A stretch of DNA of 52,321 bases, taken from assembly GCA_040755335.1 (NCBI GenBank), contig JBFMAU010000002.1, forward strand, positions 1-52,321. Direction: 5' to 3'. This document shows positions 6,223-38,137 of this stretch, one piece after another. A program made the translations under genes and the position numbers. How positions within the stretch are numbered: position 1 is the stretch's first letter; the number at the start of each line of letters is the position of its first letter. Source of the DNA: Acidobacteriota bacterium (GTDB lineage Bacteria > Acidobacteriota > Blastocatellia > UBA7656). The notes under the pieces are model-generated. The model saw only the letters and a list, made by a program, of their open reading frames with translations. It searched no databases and was not told the origin of the DNA.

Positions 6223-6280
6223 GAATGGGAGAGTGGGGGAATGGGAGAATGGGAGCGATGGCTTTTAATCTCCCACTCAT
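6223..6280 (+). repeat. GGGAG-type short tandem units plus a complementary CTCCCAC arm (hairpin)
   Basis: gaatgggagagtgggggaatgggagaatgggag cgatggcttttaat ctcccactca. It is the reverse complement of the unit family at 5527-5550 and 40160-40190. Confidence 0.75.
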
Positions 6281-6298
6281 CTTCCTGGGAGGAGCGAT

Positions 6299-6739
6299 AT
6301 GGGTAAATACTTTGAAGATTTCGAAGTGGGTCAGGAGACTCTGACCGCAGGGCGCACGATAACCGAGACTGACATCGTGAACTTCGCCGGAATCACCGGA
6401 GACTGGAACGAGATTCATACCAACCGTGAGCTTGCTGAAAGCGGCCCCTTCGGTCAGCGCATAGCCCACGGCGCGTTGATCTTTTCCATCTCTACCGGCT
6501 TGAATGTGAGGCTTGGTTTGACTTACGACACGATCATCGCCTTCTACGGGCTTGATCGTTTGAGGTTTGTAAAACCGACTTTCATCGGCGACACGATTCG
6601 CGTGCGCACAGAGGTGAAAGAAAAAACCGAACGCGACCGCGCGAGCGGCATCATAACCACGCTCAACGAGGTCATCAATCAGCGCGGAGAGGTCGTCATC
6701 AGTTACATCGCCAAATCTCTCATCAAGCGCCGCGCATAG
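6299..6739 (+). CDS. MaoC-like (R)-specific enoyl-CoA hydratase/dehydratase (hot-dog fold)
   Basis: MGKYFEDFEVGQ...TETDIVNFAGITGDWNEIHTN...RIAHGAL. RBS GGGAGGAG lies upstream. Confidence 0.85.
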   Translation: MGKYFEDFEVGQETLTAGRTITETDIVNFAGITGDWNEIHTNRELAESGPFGQRIAHGALIFSISTGLNVRLGLTYDTIIAFYGLDRLRFVKPTFIGDTIRVRTEVKEKTERDRASGIITTLNEVINQRGEVVISYIAKSLIKRRA

Positions 6740-25557: not shown

Positions 25558-25640
25558 CGGCAGCGCAGACTGGCAGATGGCTGCCGTAAAGCATGAAAAT
25601 CGGGGACGAGCAGGCCCAAAGCCCGCCTCGTCGGAGGAGA
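25558..25640 (+). promoter_or_regulatory. Leader motif relative, copy C (hairpin - AAAGCATGAAAATCGGGGA - hairpin - GGAGGAG)
   Basis: CGGCAGC/GCTGCCG hairpin, a core identical to copy B apart from a 1-nt gap over 18 nt, then an imperfect GACGAGCAGGC...GCCCGCCTCGTC hairpin and the SD. Confidence 0.5.
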
Positions 25641-25658
25641 CATCAATTGGCGACTCGC

Positions 25659-26915
25659 ATGATTAAAATCCTGCCCCTGTGTCTGGTATTTCTGTTCGCG
25701 CCATCCGCCCTGAGAGCGCAGACCTCATCGCCCGAAAGCGGGGAGGTGGAGACGCTTCGCAAAAAAATAGAAGCTCAGGAGGCGCAGATAAAACTGCTGC
25801 GCGAGATGCTCGACCGTCAACAGAGCATGCTCGAAGCCATACAGCAAAAGCTCGCTCAACCGGTCGCGTCGGATCAGAATAAATCCTCTCATACAAACTC
25901 TTCCGAGAGCGCAAAGGCTGCGACTCAGACGACTGAAAGCGTGGAAGCGGGCGCGGGCAAAATAAGATTCAACGGGCTGGCGCAGGTATGGTTTGCGTCG
26001 GGCAACGAAGGATTCCGTGACACCTTTCGTTTGCGTCGCGCGCAGTTGCGATTCAGCGGCGAACTCAATCCTAAACTCAAATGGACGGTGATGCTCGATG
26101 CTGCCAAGGCGCTTTCAGCAAACGACTCCTTCGAGGGGGGCGCATTGAGCGACGTGAAGATCGATCAATCCTCGCGAATACTTCAGGAAGCCTTCCTCAC
26201 GCTCGATTACATTCCGAGAGTTCATCTCGACGCGGGCCAGTTCAAAGTGCCTCTCTCTCTGGAACTGCTGCAACAGGCTTCGGCTCTCGACACAATTGAG
26301 CGCGCGCTGTTCATCTCAGACCGCTCGCGCGGAGGACTGGGAGTCGCTCGCGACATCGGCCTCGCGATGCGCGGTCGCCTGCACCGTCAGGTAGATTATC
26401 AACTCGGCCTTTTCAACTCCAGCGGCGAGCATCAAAACGACTCTGACCGTAACGATCAAAAAGCTCTGATCGGAAGAGTTGCTTTCCGCCCGCCTTTCAT
26501 CAAAGGTTTGCAGGTGGGAGCCTCCGGCGCGTGGGGAGGCGGAGAGCGGCCCGACCGCGTGCGACGCGACCGCGCAGGCGGCGAGGTGCTGTTTGATCGC
26601 AACGGCTTCAAATTCAAATCCGAACTGATGGCGATCACCGACGGCGACACGCATCGCCTCGGTTATTACGCTCACGTCGGCTATCGCATAACTCCGAGGC
26701 TTGAGCCTGTGTTCCGCTTCGATTCCTTCGATCCGAACACCGGTCTCGAAACCGGTCAGGCGAATGTGACCGAGCGCGATTACGTCGCAGGTCTCAACTA
26801 TTACATCAACGAAAACAAACTGAAGCTCCAGATGAACTACCTTCGCAAAACTTTCGAAAACGGATTGCTCCCTTCTCGCAATCTGGTTCTTGTGAATCTG
26901 CAAACCTCCTGGTGA
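25659..26915 (+). CDS. Phosphate-selective porin O/P-like outer-membrane protein with N-terminal coiled coil
   Basis: Signal MIKILPLCLVFLFAPSALRAQ, coiled coil EVETLRKKIEAQEAQIKLL, beta-barrel pattern ending ...LVNLQTSW. An in-frame ATG at 25593 belongs to the leader motif and is an alternative start. Confidence 0.7.
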   Translation: MIKILPLCLVFLFAPSALRAQTSSPESGEVETLRKKIEAQEAQIKLLREMLDRQQSMLEAIQQKLAQPVASDQNKSSHTNSSESAKAATQTTESVEAGAGKIRFNGLAQVWFASGNEGFRDTFRLRRAQLRFSGELNPKLKWTVMLDAAKALSANDSFEGGALSDVKIDQSSRILQEAFLTLDYIPRVHLDAGQFKVPLSLELLQQASALDTIERALFISDRSRGGLGVARDIGLAMRGRLHRQVDYQLGLFNSSGEHQNDSDRNDQKALIGRVAFRPPFIKGLQVGASGAWGGGERPDRVRRDRAGGEVLFDRNGFKFKSELMAITDGDTHRLGYYAHVGYRITPRLEPVFRFDSFDPNTGLETGQANVTERDYVAGLNYYINENKLKLQMNYLRKTFENGLLPSRNLVLVNLQTSW

Positions 26916-27782
26916 ATGATGAAAAGAAAACCAGCGACCGCATTAGCTCTCGTCGCGCTTGTCGCATCTCTGCTTGCGGCAGGCTGCGGCAAATCGACGA
27001 AGCCTCTCACTTTGAGATTGAGCATGATCCCCAATACCGATCCGGGAAGGATCGTGCGCGAAAGTCAGCCTCTCATCTCCTACCTCGAACGCGAAACGGG
27101 AGCGAAGATCGAACTGACCGTCCCGACCAACTACGCCGCGGTGGTCGAAGCTATAGCCAACGATCAGGTCGACATAGCTTACTTCGGCGGATTCACTTAC
27201 GTTCAGGCGTCCGCTCGCGCAGGAGTGCGCCCGCTCGTTCAGCGCGAACGCGATCAGAATTTTCACTCGCTGTTCATCACGCAGGCGGATTCTACGATCA
27301 ACAGCCTCGCGGATTTGAAGGGCCGCACCTTCGCTTTCGGCGATGTCAATTCGACATCGGGCCATCTGATGCCTGAATACTTCATGCGACAAGCGAACCT
27401 CGACAAAGAAGTGATCGAGAAAGCCACATACATGGGCAGCCACGACGGGACGGCGCTCGCTGTGGCGAATAAAAAAGTGGACGCGGGCGCGCTGGATGAA
27501 GCGATCTATCAGCGGATGACCGCAGAAGGCAAGCTTGACTCAGCCCGTGTTCGCGTGTTTTATACTACTCCGCCGTTTTTCGATTACGTATGGGCCGCGC
27601 GGCGGGGATTAGATGAGAAATTGAGCGAGGCATTTTCAAACGCCTTTCTCAAACTCGGCCCTGAAAACCCGGAGCATAAACAATTGTTGGAATTTCTCAG
27701 CGCGACGAAATACGTTCGCGCCGAGGACAGCGATTATGACAAACTGAGACAGGCGGCTCGCGACGCAGGATTGATGAAGTAG
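26916..27782 (+). CDS. phnD: Phosphonate/phosphite ABC transporter substrate-binding lipoprotein
   Basis: Lipobox LLAAGC, then PhnD-like FGDVNSTSGHLMP and IAYFGGFTY. Confidence 0.85.
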   Translation: MMKRKPATALALVALVASLLAAGCGKSTKPLTLRLSMIPNTDPGRIVRESQPLISYLERETGAKIELTVPTNYAAVVEAIANDQVDIAYFGGFTYVQASARAGVRPLVQRERDQNFHSLFITQADSTINSLADLKGRTFAFGDVNSTSGHLMPEYFMRQANLDKEVIEKATYMGSHDGTALAVANKKVDAGALDEAIYQRMTAEGKLDSARVRVFYTTPPFFDYVWAARRGLDEKLSEAFSNAFLKLGPENPEHKQLLEFLSATKYVRAEDSDYDKLRQAARDAGLMK

Positions 27783-27830
27783 ATGTCGGAGAGGGATGTC
27801 ACATCCGGTCTCTGACGCCTGACATCGCTG

Positions 27831-28643
27831 ATGATTTATTCGCTCAAAGAAGTCGCCAAGAAATACTCCACGCGCAACGGATCGATCCATTCCCTCGACG
27901 GCGTGACGTTCGATGTTCGCCGCGGAGAGCGAGTCGCGCTCATAGGCCCTTCGGGCGCGGGCAAGACGACGCTCTTTCGCCTGCTCAACGCGACGCTTCG
28001 CCCCACGAGCGGAGAGCTTCGATTCGACGGCGCTGATGTGGGAGCGATGACGGCGCGCTCGCTTCGCGCCATGCGCCGACGCATAGGCACGATCTATCAA
28101 CAGCATCACCTCGTCCCTTCGCTCACCGCGCTCGAAAACACGCTCTGCGGCAAACTCGGTCAGTGGTCTCTCCTCCACACTCTTCGAAACATCATCCGAC
28201 CCGCGGCGGCGGAAGTCGAACAGGCAATGGCCGCGTTAGAATCGGTCGGACTTGCAGACAAACGCCTAGCTCGCGCAGACGAGCTTTCAGGCGGACAACA
28301 ACAGCGACTCGCCATAGCCCGCGTGCTGATGCAAAACCCCGATGTCATACTTGCCGACGAGCCTTTCGCTTCGCTCGACCCCGCGCTGACGGAAAGCATC
28401 GCCTCGCTGCTCCTCTCACTCGTAGATGGAGGAAAGCGGACGCTGGTCGTCACGCTTCACGATGTAGAGATGGCGATGTGGTATTTCCCGCGCATAGTCG
28501 CCCTGCGTGAGGGACGCATAGCTTTCGACCGCCCTTCGACTGAAGTTAATCGCGACGAGATGGACGCGCTCTACGCGGGCAACTCGAACTTAGTCGATGA
28601 GCAGAGGAGCAGTATAAAACGTGAGCGACATTGCGCGCGCTGA
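27831..28643 (+). CDS. phnC: Phosphonate ABC transporter ATP-binding protein
   Basis: Walker A GPSGAGKTT, signature LSGGQQQRLAIARVL, Walker B ILADEP. Confidence 0.9.
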   Translation: MIYSLKEVAKKYSTRNGSIHSLDGVTFDVRRGERVALIGPSGAGKTTLFRLLNATLRPTSGELRFDGADVGAMTARSLRAMRRRIGTIYQQHHLVPSLTALENTLCGKLGQWSLLHTLRNIIRPAAAEVEQAMAALESVGLADKRLARADELSGGQQQRLAIARVLMQNPDVILADEPFASLDPALTESIASLLLSLVDGGKRTLVVTLHDVEMAMWYFPRIVALREGRIAFDRPSTEVNRDEMDALYAGNSNLVDEQRSSIKRERHCAR

Positions 28644-30354
28644 TTACACGGATCGATTGAATCTCAGACGCGCGACGATTGCAGCGGCGCTCGTCGCTTT
28701 GATCGTTTTTTCATGGCGCATAGCTGAGGTTCGCCCCTCCGCTCTCTTCGCATCAGACGCCATCTCTGCGGTGATAGATTTCCTCCGAGGGCTTTTCCCT
28801 CCTGATCTGTCGGCGGATTTTCTTGGAGTAGTTTTCGTGGCCGCAGGGCGAACCGTCTCGATAGCAATAGCGGGAACTCTGCTTTCGATCCTGATCGGAT
28901 TGCCGTTAGGAGCGGTCGCCGCTTCGACGCTTTTCCGGCGCGGTATTCTCCTTGCGGGCGAGCGGCGAGGCGCGTGGACGTTTCTGCTTGTGGGAGTGAG
29001 TCGGGCGGCTCGCGCGCTGCTGGGATTTCTGCGAGCGGTTCCCGATCTGATGTGGGGATTGTTGTTCGTCGTGGCCGTGGGACTAGGATCGCTCGCGGGC
29101 GCGCTGGCTCTTGCAGTAAGCTATGCGGGAGTGCTGGGCCGCGTCTATGCAGACGTGTTCGACAGCGTTGACGGGCGCCCTGTCGAAGCATTGCATGCGA
29201 CGGGCGCGACGCGCTCACAGGTTTTCCTTCGCGCCGTCTGGCCTCAGTCCAGACCGACGATCATCGCTTACACGCTTTATTCATTCGAGTGCTGCATGCG
29301 CGCGGCTTCGGTTCTCGGATTCATAGGCGCGGGAGGCATAGGATACGAGATAAGCCTTTCGATGCGGCTCTACAGATACGATCAGGTGTTGACGCTGATA
29401 ATCGCTTTCATACTGCTGCTCACGGCTACCGACGCATTCAGTCGTTACCTGCGACGGAGGTTTCGCGCCAACGCTCCGCAGGGGACGCTTGCGCACGAAC
29501 GATTCAACGGGCTTGGGCTGATAACCGGAATCCCTCTCGAACGGGTGATGAACATAAGCATAGCCGCCATTGCAATCGCGGCGGTGACGGCGAGTTTTTA
29601 CGCAAGCGGATTTTTCGACGGCTCTCTGATGGATGCATCTTTGCTCAGTCGCATCAGTCGTTTCGTCGGGGCGATGATGCCGCCCGAACTGAGCGCATCT
29701 TTTTTGCGATCACTCATCGAGCCGCTTTTTCAAACCATAGCGATTTCCGTCATGGGGACGCTCATCGGAATGATTACAGGCGCGCTGCTGGCTCTGCCCG
29801 CGACAGCGACATTGATATTCGTAGAAGAAGACGAAGCGGGAAAGCGATCCCGGTTAGAGCGAGCGGCGCGGAGGATGACATACACGCTTGCGCGAACGGT
29901 GTTGAGTCTTCTTCGTTCGATACCTGAGCTTGTGTGGGTATTGATGTGCATCATAGCCGTGGGTCTCGGCCCATTTGCGGGAGCCATTGCGATAGGGCTT
30001 CACACGGGCGGCGTGCTGGGGAAGCTTTATGCGGAGACGCTCGAAGAAGTTCCGGAGAATCCTCTCGAAGCGTTGCGTTCGACGGGCGCGCGAAGGATGC
30101 AGATACTCGCGTGGGGCATCTGGCCGCAGGCGAGACCTATGCTCGTAAGCTACACGGTGTTGAGGTGGGAGACGAATTTGAGAGTATCGACTGTTTTGGG
30201 ACTTGTGGGCGGCGGCGGACTGGGGCAGGCGATTTACAACAACATTCAGCTTGGGTTTTACACGAAGGTGGCGACTTTAATACTCGCGGTTTACGCGCTC
30301 GTTGTGACGACCGATTGGATAGGCGACCGCGTGCGAGAGCGGCCCGCATCGTAA
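28621..30354 (+). CDS. phnE: Phosphonate ABC transporter permease, tandem-fused double PhnE
   Basis: Two PhnE-like halves, each with EAL.(A/S)TGA....(W)PQ..P and LG.(I/V)G.GG(I/L)G motifs. The GTG start overlaps the end of phnC. Confidence 0.85.
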   Translation: MSDIARADYTDRLNLRRATIAAALVALIVFSWRIAEVRPSALFASDAISAVIDFLRGLFPPDLSADFLGVVFVAAGRTVSIAIAGTLLSILIGLPLGAVAASTLFRRGILLAGERRGAWTFLLVGVSRAARALLGFLRAVPDLMWGLLFVVAVGLGSLAGALALAVSYAGVLGRVYADVFDSVDGRPVEALHATGATRSQVFLRAVWPQSRPTIIAYTLYSFECCMRAASVLGFIGAGGIGYEISLSMRLYRYDQVLTLIIAFILLLTATDAFSRYLRRRFRANAPQGTLAHERFNGLGLITGIPLERVMNISIAAIAIAAVTASFYASGFFDGSLMDASLLSRISRFVGAMMPPELSASFLRSLIEPLFQTIAISVMGTLIGMITGALLALPATATLIFVEEDEAGKRSRLERAARRMTYTLARTVLSLLRSIPELVWVLMCIIAVGLGPFAGAIAIGLHTGGVLGKLYAETLEEVPENPLEALRSTGARRMQILAWGIWPQARPMLVSYTVLRWETNLRVSTVLGLVGGGGLGQAIYNNIQLGFYTKVATLILAVYALVVTTDWIGDRVRERPAS

Positions 30355-30419: not shown

Positions 30420-32003
30420 ATGCTGGAAACAAGTGATCAGGCTCCTGCGTTTTCTCTACCACAACTTGATGGAAACACGATACGGCTCGGCGAAGGCAAA
30501 CCGCGTCTCGTCGTTTTTTTGGAAACCGATTGCCCGACCTGTCGATTGACTATTCCTTATCTCAATCGCCTCTCTTCGATACTCGGAGAAAATTCAGATG
30601 CTGTCATAGGCATATCGCAGGACGGCGAGCGGCAAACCAGAGAACTCATCGAGCAGATGCAAATTTCTTTTCCCGTAGTCACGGACAGCGATTTGAAAGT
30701 CTCGCGCGAGTATGATCCTGTGGCAGTGCCTACGCTCTTCCTCATCGATGCAAACGGAAAAATCATTCGAACCCAAACCGCTTTCGACAAGGAAGATTTA
30801 AACGACATCGCTCGCCTGATGTGCGAAGCCTTCAAACTCAGTCCCGTCATCATCGCCGACCCTTACGACGGCGCTCCGCAATCAAAGCCCGGTTGCATGT
30901 CTCGTCATCTTGAAACTGCGACCGAAGACGACGTAGCGGAAGCGATCAACCTTTACGCAAAACGCGGCAGCCGCGCCTCGCGCATCGAGCTTGACGACGC
31001 GACCGACGTTTACGAATACCTGATGCAGTACGATCCGCTGCCCGTAGTGCCTCCCACCACGGAGCGCGTAGAAAGAATGCTTGCGGCGACAACGCTTCCG
31101 GCGGATGAAATCATCGCCCGCGTTCCGCCAAACTATGGCGCGGCTACGGTCGAAAAAATAGCCGCAAACGCCGTGATGGCCGGATGCAAGCCGGAGATGA
31201 TGAGCGTGTTGATACCGCTCATTCGCGCCGCATGCGATGAAAGATTCAACCTTCACGGGGTTCAGGCGACGACTCACTTCGCCGCGCCTCTCATAATCGT
31301 CAATGGCCCTGTCCGTCATCGATTGGGTTTTACCTGTGCGGGCAATGTGATGAGCAACGTCTCGCGAGCGAACTCTACGCTCGGTCGCGCATTGCAACTC
31401 ATCTTGACGAATATCGGCGGCGCGCGTCCGGGCGAGATAGATATGTCGACGCTCGGCAATCCCGGAAAATTTTCTTACTGCATAGCCGAAAACGAAGAAG
31501 CAAGTCCGTGGGAGCCGCTTCAGGTCGAGATGGGACTCTTGAGAGATCAAAGCGCGGTCACACTTTTTGCCGCAGAGCCTCCGCGCGGCGTGAGCGAGCA
31601 TAACGCCCGTCGCGGCGAAACCGTTCTCAAAGCGATCAGCCGCGCGCTTGCGACCTCGTGGACTTATCGCTCCTGTATAGGAATCGAAGCGATAGTCGTG
31701 CTTTGCCCTGAGCATGTGAAAACACTCGACAGCGACGGCTTCACCAAACAGTCGATAAGAGAGTGGCTCTTTCACAACACGGGCATTCCCAAAAAAGAAT
31801 ATACGGACGAAGGCGAGGGGACTCAGTACACGCAGTTTTACAAAGAGGCGGTGATCGCGGGCGAGCCATGTTATTTGAAATTCCCGCACCCATCAGCGAT
31901 AAAAATAGTCGTCGCGGGCGGGACAGCCGGAAAGTTTTCAGCCGTCATCAGCAGTTGGGCCGCAGGAGAACGCGGTAGCCAGATGGTCACTTATCCGGTT
32001 TAG
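30420..32003 (+). CDS. Fusion protein: N-terminal TlpA/peroxiredoxin-like thioredoxin-fold domain (CPTC) plus an unrecognised ~380-aa C-terminal domain
   Basis: APAFSLPQLDGNTIRL...VVFLETDCPTCRL...VPTLFLIDANGKI covers residues 1-~135. I match the remainder to no family. RBS GAGGTG. Confidence 0.8.
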   Translation: MLETSDQAPAFSLPQLDGNTIRLGEGKPRLVVFLETDCPTCRLTIPYLNRLSSILGENSDAVIGISQDGERQTRELIEQMQISFPVVTDSDLKVSREYDPVAVPTLFLIDANGKIIRTQTAFDKEDLNDIARLMCEAFKLSPVIIADPYDGAPQSKPGCMSRHLETATEDDVAEAINLYAKRGSRASRIELDDATDVYEYLMQYDPLPVVPPTTERVERMLAATTLPADEIIARVPPNYGAATVEKIAANAVMAGCKPEMMSVLIPLIRAACDERFNLHGVQATTHFAAPLIIVNGPVRHRLGFTCAGNVMSNVSRANSTLGRALQLILTNIGGARPGEIDMSTLGNPGKFSYCIAENEEASPWEPLQVEMGLLRDQSAVTLFAAEPPRGVSEHNARRGETVLKAISRALATSWTYRSCIGIEAIVVLCPEHVKTLDSDGFTKQSIREWLFHNTGIPKKEYTDEGEGTQYTQFYKEAVIAGEPCYLKFPHPSAIKIVVAGGTAGKFSAVISSWAAGERGSQMVTYPV

Positions 32004-32097
32004 TGGTCAGTGGCCAGTGGTCGGTGGTCAGTTGTTTTATTCTGACTCCAAACTTCTGGCTTCTGACTCCAGACTCCAGACTCTCGACTCCAGACTT
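32004..32097 (+). repeat. Composite intercistronic short-tandem-repeat element: (GGTCAGT)n - TTTTATTCTGACTCCA - (GACTCCA)n - T-run
   Basis: TGGTCAGTGGCCAGTGGTCGGTGGTCAGTTG TTTTATTCTGACTCCAAACTTCTGGCTTCTGACTCCAGACTCCAGACTCTCGACTCCAGACTTTT, then GAGGAG and the ATG. Confidence 0.85.
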
Positions 32098-32111
32098 TTG
32101 AGGAGAACATT

Positions 32112-32639
32112 ATGCCGATAAATTTGATCAATCCGTTTGACGAGACTCCGCGCTCGCACGTCGCGGCGGCCTCGCGACTGAGCGCGCTTGAAGGCAAGAC
32201 CGTCGCTCTGCTCGACATCAGCAAACCGGGCGGAAGCGTTTTTCTGAATCGCATCGAAGCGTTGCTCAAAGATCGCTTTCGAGTCCGCGAGGTCATTCGA
32301 GCGATGAAGCCGACCTTCACGAAGCCCGCGCCTGATGAGGTGATAGGAAAGATCGTCGCGGCAAAAGCCGATGCGGTGATAGAAGCTCTGGCCGATTGAG
32401 GGTCATGCACGACGTGCAGTTTGCACGACACGACCCGGTTTGAAAGCATGGGGATTCCTTCGGTCGCAATAGCCACAGAAGAATTTATGACGGCAGCCCG
32501 CGCTCAGGCCGCAGCATTGGGGCGAGCGGATTTCGACGCGGTTTACGTCGCGCATCCCATACAGGATCAGACCCGACAGGAAATAGAAGCCCGCGCTGAC
32601 GCGGTGATCGAAGAGATAGCCGCGCGGCTCACATCGTGA
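32112..32639 (+). CDS. UGSC-type (UxxCxxC) selenoprotein. An in-frame TGA at 32397-32399 is read as selenocysteine; 175 aa in total.
   Basis: Track ORFs 32112-32399 and 32421-32639 share one frame. Read-through gives ...AVIEALAD-U-GSCTTCSLHDTTRFESMGIPSVAIATEEF... A SECIS-like hairpin follows the TGA. The second ORF has only a TTG start and no RBS. Confidence 0.75.
32400..32436 (+). promoter_or_regulatory. Candidate bacterial SECIS element
   Basis: GGGUC(32400-04)/GACCC(32432-36) basal stem. CGUGCA(32413-18)/UGCACG(32422-27) apical stem with loop GUU. It starts directly after the UGA. Confidence 0.6.
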
Positions 32640-32732: not shown

Positions 32733-32987
32733 ATGAAGGCGCGCAAATCGGTAGAGCTTGGTCAATACATAATCGCCGACCCGCAGATTTGCCATGGCAA
32801 ACCCACCTTCAAAGGCACGCGCATCATGGTCAGAGACGTTCTCTACTTCGTGGCAAAGGGTTATGATTGGGATCGCATCTCGGCTGAATACGACGGACGC
32901 CTTAGCCATGAAGCTATTGCGGAGGCGATTGAGTTGGCTCGCAAGGCATTGATCGAAAAAACTGAGAAGCCGAAACGGGCAGCATGA
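32733..32987 (+). CDS. DUF433-family antitoxin-like protein
   Basis: ICHGKPTFKGTRIMVRDVLYFVAKGYDWDRISAEY..LSHEAIAEAIELA matches the DUF433 pattern. RBS AAGGAG. Confidence 0.8.
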   Translation: MKARKSVELGQYIIADPQICHGKPTFKGTRIMVRDVLYFVAKGYDWDRISAEYDGRLSHEAIAEAIELARKALIEKTEKPKRAA

Positions 32988-33370
32988 ACGTCCTTGATGA
33001 GAACATCATAGCGAGCCAGCGCAAACAACTTGAATCATGGAAGATTCACTTTCGACGGATCGGCGACGAGGTCGGTCATTTGGGAATGAAGGATATGGAT
33101 GAAATTATTCCGCTGCTTCACGCCCTGCACCGCCCGACATTTTTTACGATGGACGAAGACTTCTATCGCCCTCAACTCCTCCACGCCGGCTATTGTCTGG
33201 TCTATCTCGATGTGTACCCCGACGAAGCCGCTCAATATATTCGCCGCTTCCTGCGCTTCAAAGGATTTCGCACTCAGGCGCAACGAATGGGCAAAGTGAT
33301 TCGCCTTCGACACACTGAGATGGACTACAGACAGATTGGCATACAGAAAGAGATCGCAATTCACTGGTGA
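32984..33370 (+). CDS. DUF5615-like (PIN/Mut7-C-like) putative toxin
   Basis: MNVLDENI...IIPLLHALHRPTFFTMDEDF. ATGA start/stop overlap with the DUF433 gene. This is the usual DUF433 partner. Confidence 0.65.
   Translation: MNVLDENIIASQRKQLESWKIHFRRIGDEVGHLGMKDMDEIIPLLHALHRPTFFTMDEDFYRPQLLHAGYCLVYLDVYPDEAAQYIRRFLRFKGFRTQAQRMGKVIRLRHTEMDYRQIGIQKEIAIHW

Positions 33371-35308: not shown

Positions 35309-38137
<2,829 letters not shown>

Follow-up and report, generated by a model that had tools for sequence, protein, structure and literature searches.

A UGSC-family selenoprotein gene, probably read through an in-frame UGA, and its conserved thioredoxin-fusion partner on an Acidobacteriota contig

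We conclude from comparative sequence evidence, with a probability of about 0.88, that positions 32112-32639 on the forward strand of the DNA analysed here (the window, which is a whole contig of 52,321 bp) are one gene of 175 codons for a selenoprotein of the UGSC family, in which the in-frame UGA at 32397-32399 would be decoded as selenocysteine (Sec96), the first residue of a U-G-S-C-T-T-C motif. This UGA would be read as selenocysteine because a short mRNA hairpin (32413-32427) lies just 3' of it, in the same place as the E. coli binding site of SelB, the Sec-specific elongation factor, and a second UGA, at 32637-32639, without such a hairpin, would end the protein.

The sequence-only reading that this work followed up had joined two small open reading frames (ORFs) across the UGA, and re-reading the sequence reproduced that arrangement exactly. 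The upstream ORF (32112-32399) encodes 95 aa from an ATG at 32112 that has a Shine-Dalgarno-like GAGGAG (32100-32105) 6 nt 5' of it. The downstream ORF (32421-32639) encodes 72 aa in the same frame; its sole start is, as had been said, a TTG, which falls inside the hairpin, and inspection of the sequence found no ribosome-binding site for it. Between the two lie the TGA at 32397-32399 and seven sense codons. When 32112-32639 is translated in one frame there is a single internal stop, that same TGA, and the read-through product of 175 aa contains the proposed peptide ...AVIEALAD-U-GSCTTCSLHDTTRFESMGIPSVAIATEEF..., with U96, C99 and C102 in the redox motif (U96-G-S-C99-T-T-C102) and the true stop at the TGA at 32637-32639.

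Profile searches, run with U written as C in the 175-aa product, matched Pfam PF24696 ("UGSC family") at 8.3e-47 (159.9 bits against a cut-off of 25), with positions 2-171 of the 172 in the profile aligned. NCBIfam NF041046 ("UGSC family (seleno)protein"), whose curated cut-off is 125 bits, gave a score of 157.3. The read-through protein therefore matches both models end to end and above their curated cut-offs; its U-G-S-C motif stands at the conserved family position and the protein runs on for about 80 residues past it. That UGSC-containing proteins had been reported from marine metagenomes was stated in the sequence-only reading, and the literature agrees: the family was predicted from the Sargasso Sea and GOS metagenomes (Zhang & Gladyshev 2008, PMC2398784), where it was among the most abundant selenoprotein families, with 255 Sec and 21 Cys forms, and it was described as putatively redox-active and without a known function (PMC2398784). 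It is listed as a selenoprotein family (PMC13188914) and was still uncharacterised in reviews of 2022 and 2026. Judged by these profile matches, the gene is a member of an already described, curated family and not the founder of a new one.

A homologue search with the UGSC protein returned 352 relatives, and about 100 of the best 120 of these have lengths of 96-130 aa and stop exactly at ...EALAD. Could the TGA then be a genuine stop, leaving a 95-residue protein followed by a decaying remnant or by a separate small gene? This is what gene callers give, it agrees with those homologues, and Sec machinery was not seen in the 52,321-bp window. We nevertheless regard it as extremely improbable, given what genome DNA shows at related loci. 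In a scan of one genome for each species, relatives were encoded at no fewer than 584 loci, and the best 80 of these, which we analysed, span at least eight phyla; their hosts include Longimicrobiales (Gemmatimonadota), Gamma- and Alphaproteobacteria, Dehalococcoidia and other Chloroflexota, Myxococcota, Acidimicrobiia and other Actinomycetota, Binatia, Dormiibacterota and Spirochaetales. The Sec codon is TGA in all 80, and in all 80 it is followed in frame by GSCT(T/S)CS(L/V)HD, so that the residues after the TGA are conserved, and they match the second half of the family profile. A separate small gene is further opposed by the TTG-only start of the downstream ORF, lying as it does inside the hairpin and without a ribosome-binding site, and a hairpin whose synonymous sites are frozen over at least eight phyla is not what a decaying remnant would retain.

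The homologues that are full length (171-197 aa) read ...AL(A/S)DCGSCT(S/T)CS..., with Cys at the Sec column in 13 of 14 and with H105, D106, G114, F125, Q132, G137, H148 and P149 invariant after the Sec site. Cys homologues thus have their Cys at position 96 and run on over the whole C-terminal half, as the sequence-only reading had predicted for a Sec/Cys pair. Because genome DNA shows TGA and then a conserved in-frame continuation at 80 of the best 80 loci, the ...EALAD entries are gene-caller truncations rather than proteins that genuinely end there, which bears out the earlier warning that standard callers would split or truncate the gene. The UGSC family is systematically mis-annotated in public protein sets. 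Some downstream halves are called in those sets as separate proteins or are mis-fused (P0052, P0105 and P0110). For annotation, the value of the present result is that the read-through product is the real protein and that the present gene and most of its public homologues are truncated at the Sec codon.

A genome-wide reassignment of TGA can be ruled out, because TGA is the commonest ordinary stop in the window (it ends 14 of the 27 family-supported genes) and the TGA at 32397-32399 is the only internal one among those 27 genes. Might the UGA instead be read through by a suppressor, by a tRNA-Sec-like tRNA or by near-cognate decoding, with Cys, Trp or another residue inserted? The thought has some basis, since tRNA-Sec-like "allo-tRNAs", perhaps suppressors, have been reported from Acidobacteria (PMC5389517), and since selA, selB, selD and tRNA-Sec are absent from the annotated genes and tRNAs of the 52,321-bp contig, a window that holds no tRNA genes of any kind. 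We consider such decoding very unlikely all the same: a hairpin stands at the SelB-type position with an invariant G23-U24, the site aligns with a redox-active Cys in the manner of a classic Sec/Cys pair, general suppression would be costly where TGA is the ordinary stop of 14 of 27 genes, and the family is curated as a selenoprotein family (NF041046; PMC13188914).

The hairpin itself deserves a fuller account, for the sequence-only reading had drawn a SECIS-like structure with an outer GGGUC/GACCC and an inner CGUGCA/UGCACG stem. The minimum-free-energy fold of the window RNA contains both: the outer stem pairs GGGUC (32400-32404) with GACCC (32432-32436), so that the structure extends over 32400-32436, and the inner one is a 6-bp stem closed by a GUU loop (G23-U24-U25, 32419-32421). 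This inner core (32413-32427) starts 13 nt after the UGA and spans nt 17-31 counted from its U. In E. coli the upper stem-loop of the SECIS covers nt 15-31 and has G23 and U24 in its apical loop, of which G23 contacts SelB (PMC8659212); the position and size claimed for the element, with G23-U24 in the loop, are therefore in the same register as in fdhF of E. coli. The folding energy is unremarkable relative to shuffled sequences (z = -0.31, with 69 of 200 shuffles folding at least as well), and the significance of the hairpin therefore rests on comparison with other genes.

That comparison was made at the level of synonymous sites. In 77 of 77 distinct Sec-form sequences, the four codons +5 to +8 downstream of the TGA read (A/T)CG, TGC, AGT and (G/T)TG, which gives a third-position entropy of zero, and the neighbouring Gly, Ser, Cys and Thr codons at +1 to +4 have 1.0-1.8 bits in the same 77 sequences. 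Ser +2 uses six different codons whereas Ser +7 is AGT in all 77. The core, CGUGCA-GU(U/G)-UGCA(C/U)G, pairs in 64 of 64 distinct Sec-form rows; five of its pairs are invariant and the sixth varies from G-C to G-U only, so that no compensatory changes occur in the core stem among the 64 rows. Since the stem is invariant, the RNA evidence consists of synonymous-site constraint and not of covariation. As a negative control we took 120 metagenomic Cys-form loci, which reduce to 92 distinct sequences, and here the entropy at codons +5 to +8 is 0.6-1.8 bits, only 2 of the 92 have AGT, and not one of the 92 could fold into the full 6-bp hairpin. Because the hairpin codons are frozen in the Sec forms and vary in the 92 Cys forms, the constraint on them, as read from these alignments, is one at the RNA level that goes with the UGA.

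The outer stem fared differently. Across homologues, about 65% of the cells in its GGGUC/GACCC columns are paired, and a different lower-stem register (columns 10-15 with 36-41) is used in other lineages, among them Gammaproteobacteria; with only 65-70% of cells paired, both candidate lower stems were dropped as conserved features. Of the SECIS-like hairpin as first described, then, the fold and the inner stem stood (64/64, in Sec forms only), and the outer stem became a lineage-specific element. A search of the window against Rfam at gathering thresholds gave no match. The claim of a single UGSC-type selenoprotein gene is upheld by the full-length family matches, the Cys/Sec pairing and the conservation of both the frame and the inner hairpin.

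One homologue of gammaproteobacterial type (P0003, at 6241-6330 of locus L201) carries GGA (Gly) in place of the TGA with the SECIS hairpin fully intact, and on its contig the partner gene and a CoA-transferase gene are each split in two. We dropped a "Gly-type" UGSC subfamily based on this sequence, given the intact SECIS and the several split genes of the contig; the GGA probably comes from misassembly or from a mutation that arose very recently.

Upstream of the selenoprotein gene, on the same strand at 30420-32003, is a gene for a partner protein of 527 aa that consists of a thioredoxin (Trx) fold joined to a domain of about 380 aa. Its N-terminal domain is a TlpA/ResA-like thioredoxin fold with C38-P-T-C41, and its Pfam matches, to Redoxin (1e-19) and AhpC-TSA, are confined to residues 5-130. 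The linker carries C159 (in PGC) and the C-terminal domain carries C256 (in AGCKPE, or AGC-K/R-PE across the family); C38, C41, C159 and C256 are invariant or nearly so among 131 partner sequences. An AlphaFold2 model of the partner (pLDDT 92.1) has a disordered linker at residues 168-184. Foldseek compared the N-terminal domain with ResA at E 9e-11 and TMt 0.85, with ResA and DsbE structures in general at TMt 0.82-0.87, and when run with the partner model it returned Trx-domain matches (ResA, DsbE) only and none for the C-terminal domain. The fold of the C-terminal domain stays unclassified because the Trx domain swamped that search. Other routes gave no relative either: four partner C-terminal domains had no meaningful Pfam match at E<=10 (SDA1_HEAT, at E=0.023, fell below its cut-off), NCBIfam matches of the partner at E<=1 all lay within the Trx domain, sequence and profile searches found no meaningful relative of the C-terminal domain in the PDB, and hhalign found no relationship between it and UGSC.

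The association of the two genes is far more general than this contig. The partner C-terminal domain is encoded directly upstream of UGSC at 74 of 80 Sec-form loci (the best 80 of at least 584) and, among the 70 Cys-form loci with enough space for it, at 68. Overall the partner is upstream at 142 of 150 informative loci, in most of which the genes abut or overlap. No in-frame partner-UGSC fusion (the GOS "UGSC/Unknown_1") was found among 200 loci. More than 6,000 proteins are related to the partner and are named merely "TlpA family", "thioredoxin family" or "peroxiredoxin"; homologues of the present partner, at up to 86% identity, place the contig in Blastocatellia (Acidobacteriota). Because the Cys-form and proteobacterial partners also carry a Trx-like domain, in their case a shorter and divergent one with CETC or CPTC, the layout of Trx domain plus C-terminal domain is general.

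Since the genes abut or overlap at most other loci, the 108-nt spacer between them in the window is unusual. It contains two heptamer arrays, AGTGGTC x4.4 (32002-32032) and GACTCCA x4.6 (32065-32096), the latter of which can also be read as a 21-nt period from 32040 to 32097. On the minus strand, a 158-aa antisense ORF (32000-32476) lies across the spacer and reaches over the first two-thirds of the selenoprotein gene, and comparable antisense ORFs occur at 64 related loci; we treat it as an artefact, its recurrence being most likely due to conservation of the sense strand.

How far does the wider neighbourhood go with the pair? Directly upstream of the partner, on the same strand at 25593-30354, are genes for a phosphate-selective porin (Porin_O_P), for a periplasmic binding protein of phosphonate type, and for an ABC ATPase and a fused permease. 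On the other side, at 32733-33370, the selenoprotein gene is directly followed by a DUF433 gene (84 aa) and an ORF of 128 aa that has no family match, the two sharing 4 nt; this layout resembles a toxin-antitoxin-type pair and is not kept beside UGSC at other loci. Neither the porin and phosphonate-type ABC transporter genes nor the DUF433, ProRS and methyltransferase neighbours showed co-conservation with the pair at other loci. Further along, at 35318-38137, an IMP dehydrogenase gene (939 aa) contains an intein that bears a LAGLIDADG homing-endonuclease domain, with Intein_splicing and LAGLIDADG_3 matches (Pfam) between the IMPDH halves. At the Cys-form loci (L081-L200, examples being L155, L179, L190 and L196) frequent neighbours of the pair are a divergent GntR/FCD regulator, at 22 loci, binding proteins of the TctC family, at 15, and symporters of the SDF family, at 7. 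TrxB-like pyridine-nucleotide disulfide reductases, which match Pyr_redox_2 and have a CAVC motif, flank it at 8. Sec-form pairs of Gammaproteobacteria have TauD, acyl-CoA dehydrogenase, CoA-transferase and MFS genes around them.

The fold of the selenoprotein was modelled on a Cys homologue (P0002) that is 49% identical to the window protein. The model (pLDDT 92.6, pTM 0.86) has five beta-alpha units and five strands, with the Sec-equivalent residue between strand 3 (87-93) and helix 3 (96-111), at the N-terminal end of the helix, whose first turns carry the cysteines at +3 and +6. Its best structure matches in the PDB are weak (TM 0.52 or lower) and are to flavodoxin-like folds, and sequence and profile searches of the PDB with the UGSC family gave nothing meaningful. 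The model suggests a flavodoxin-like fold and not a thioredoxin fold, the latter having been the guess of the 2008 paper (PMC2398784).

The sequence-only reading had also linked the motif to GrdB, and this link was borne out in part. UxxCxxC is the Sec motif of GrdB (PMC13188914), and the GrdB/GrdF models are weakly matched by 11 of 15 UGSC proteins (E of about 3e-4 to 1e-2), seven of which also match GrdH. These matches cover only about 50 residues round the Sec motif (GrdB positions of about 327-376; residues 75-126 of the window protein), and the scores for TIGR01917 (18.4 bits against a cut-off of 602.2) and TIGR01918 (14.1 against 65.45) are far below what membership demands. We accordingly rejected membership of the Grd/Prd selenoprotein B families, whole-protein scores being below the cut-offs and the match local only.

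What, then, might the pair do? From the constant adjacency of the partner and the weak GrdB-like similarity, and by analogy with GrdB/GrdE and PrdB/PrdA, we tentatively propose, at somewhat less than even odds, that UGSC is the small Sec subunit of a two-gene, thioredoxin-fed reductase that it forms with the upstream partner. In the Prd system the Sec subunit PrdB tightly binds the co-encoded PrdA, and its selenocysteine attacks the PrdA-bound substrate (PMC11229817). In the proposed enzyme the partner's C-terminal domain of about 380 aa would hold a small-molecule substrate near the invariant C256, the U96 selenolate would attack it, as the analogy implies, and C99 or C102 would resolve the adduct into an Se-S bond. 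The partner CxxC would then re-reduce the selenenyl-sulfide, possibly through the invariant C159 on the flexible linker, and would itself ultimately be fed by thioredoxin reductase and NADPH. The TrxB-like genes, the GntR/FCD regulators and the TctC/SDF carboxylate-carrier genes beside some Cys-form pairs fit a thioredoxin-fed small-molecule reaction, as does the setting of the gammaproteobacterial Sec-form pairs. Flanking catabolic genes that differ between lineages may reflect shared ancestry of the loci and not shared function, and it is because contexts differ between lineages, and could have this origin, that we hold the mechanism no more firmly than we do.

Does the pair need so specific a role, or could it be a general thiol/selenol redox or detoxification couple, acting on peroxide, disulfide, or metal or metalloid, and not a Grd/Prd-like reductase? 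The partner N-terminal domain does belong to the Redoxin/AhpC-TSA/TlpA superfamily, UGSC has been treated as a putative redox protein (PMC2398784), and the neighbouring genes are inconsistent between lineages. Against this, a general couple would not need a strictly co-conserved domain of about 380 aa with invariant cysteines of its own, the UGSC model is flavodoxin-like and not thioredoxin-like, and similarity to proteins outside the family was detected only with the Sec region of GrdB, GrdF and GrdH, the part that attacks the substrate. We think a general couple, the main rival on function, somewhat unlikely on this evidence. Going beyond this genome, and with considerable reserve, we raise the possibility that UGSC and its Trx-fusion partner are a widespread, undescribed Sec- (or Cys-) dependent reductase, Grd/Prd-like in plan, with an unrelated substrate-binding subunit and found in largely aerobic bacteria.

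UGSC is among the commonest predicted selenoproteins of aquatic metagenomes and has been without an assigned function since 2005-2008. The near-obligatory Trx-fusion neighbour is a testable lead on that function, and further leads are the conserved thiol/selenol set (C38, C41, C159 and C256 of the partner with U96, C99 and C102 of UGSC) and the TrxB-like genes beside Cys-form pairs. The results of wider use are the comparative demonstration of the UGSC SECIS against a Cys-form control and the near-universal partner gene. If true, the reductase reading would explain what one of the most abundant orphan selenoprotein families of ocean metagenomes does, and would mean that eight or more phyla, with abundant marine and soil lineages among them, have an undescribed reductase pair.

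Set beside known systems, the selenoprotein is closest to the UGSC family as already described, which it resembles in its full-length profile match, in U-G-S-C at the conserved site and in the large excess of Sec over Cys forms; it differs in that the present copy lies on a Blastocatellia-like (Acidobacteriota) contig and not in a marine sample. Its hairpin is like the SECIS of E. coli fdhF in lying within the coding sequence just 3' of the UGA, in ending at nt 31 and in having G23/U24 in the loop, but it has a perfect 6-bp stem from nt 17, a 3-nt loop and a variable lower stem, and the bulged U17 of the fdhF element is absent. The partner is like TlpA, ResA and DsbE in its N-terminal domain only (a thioredoxin fold, CxxC and Redoxin/AhpC-TSA), and is unlike them in having no evident signal peptide or membrane anchor and in being fused to a domain of about 380 aa.

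With GrdB, GrdF, GrdH and PrdB (TIGR01917, NF040794, NF040795, TIGR01918) the likenesses are the UxxCxxC placed at a strand end and helix start, a gene that sits beside that of an obligatory larger partner, and links to the thioredoxin system. The differences are considerable. UGSC has 175 aa where these B subunits have about 240-435 aa; its partner is not GrdE/PrdA-like and has no sign of a pyruvoyl group, profile and PDB searches having detected no similarity of the C-terminal domain to GrdE, PrdA or any other family; and grdA, grdC, grdD and prdC are absent nearby. Lastly, the hosts of UGSC are mostly aerobic soil and marine lineages and not the amino-acid-fermenting anaerobes of the Grd and Prd systems.
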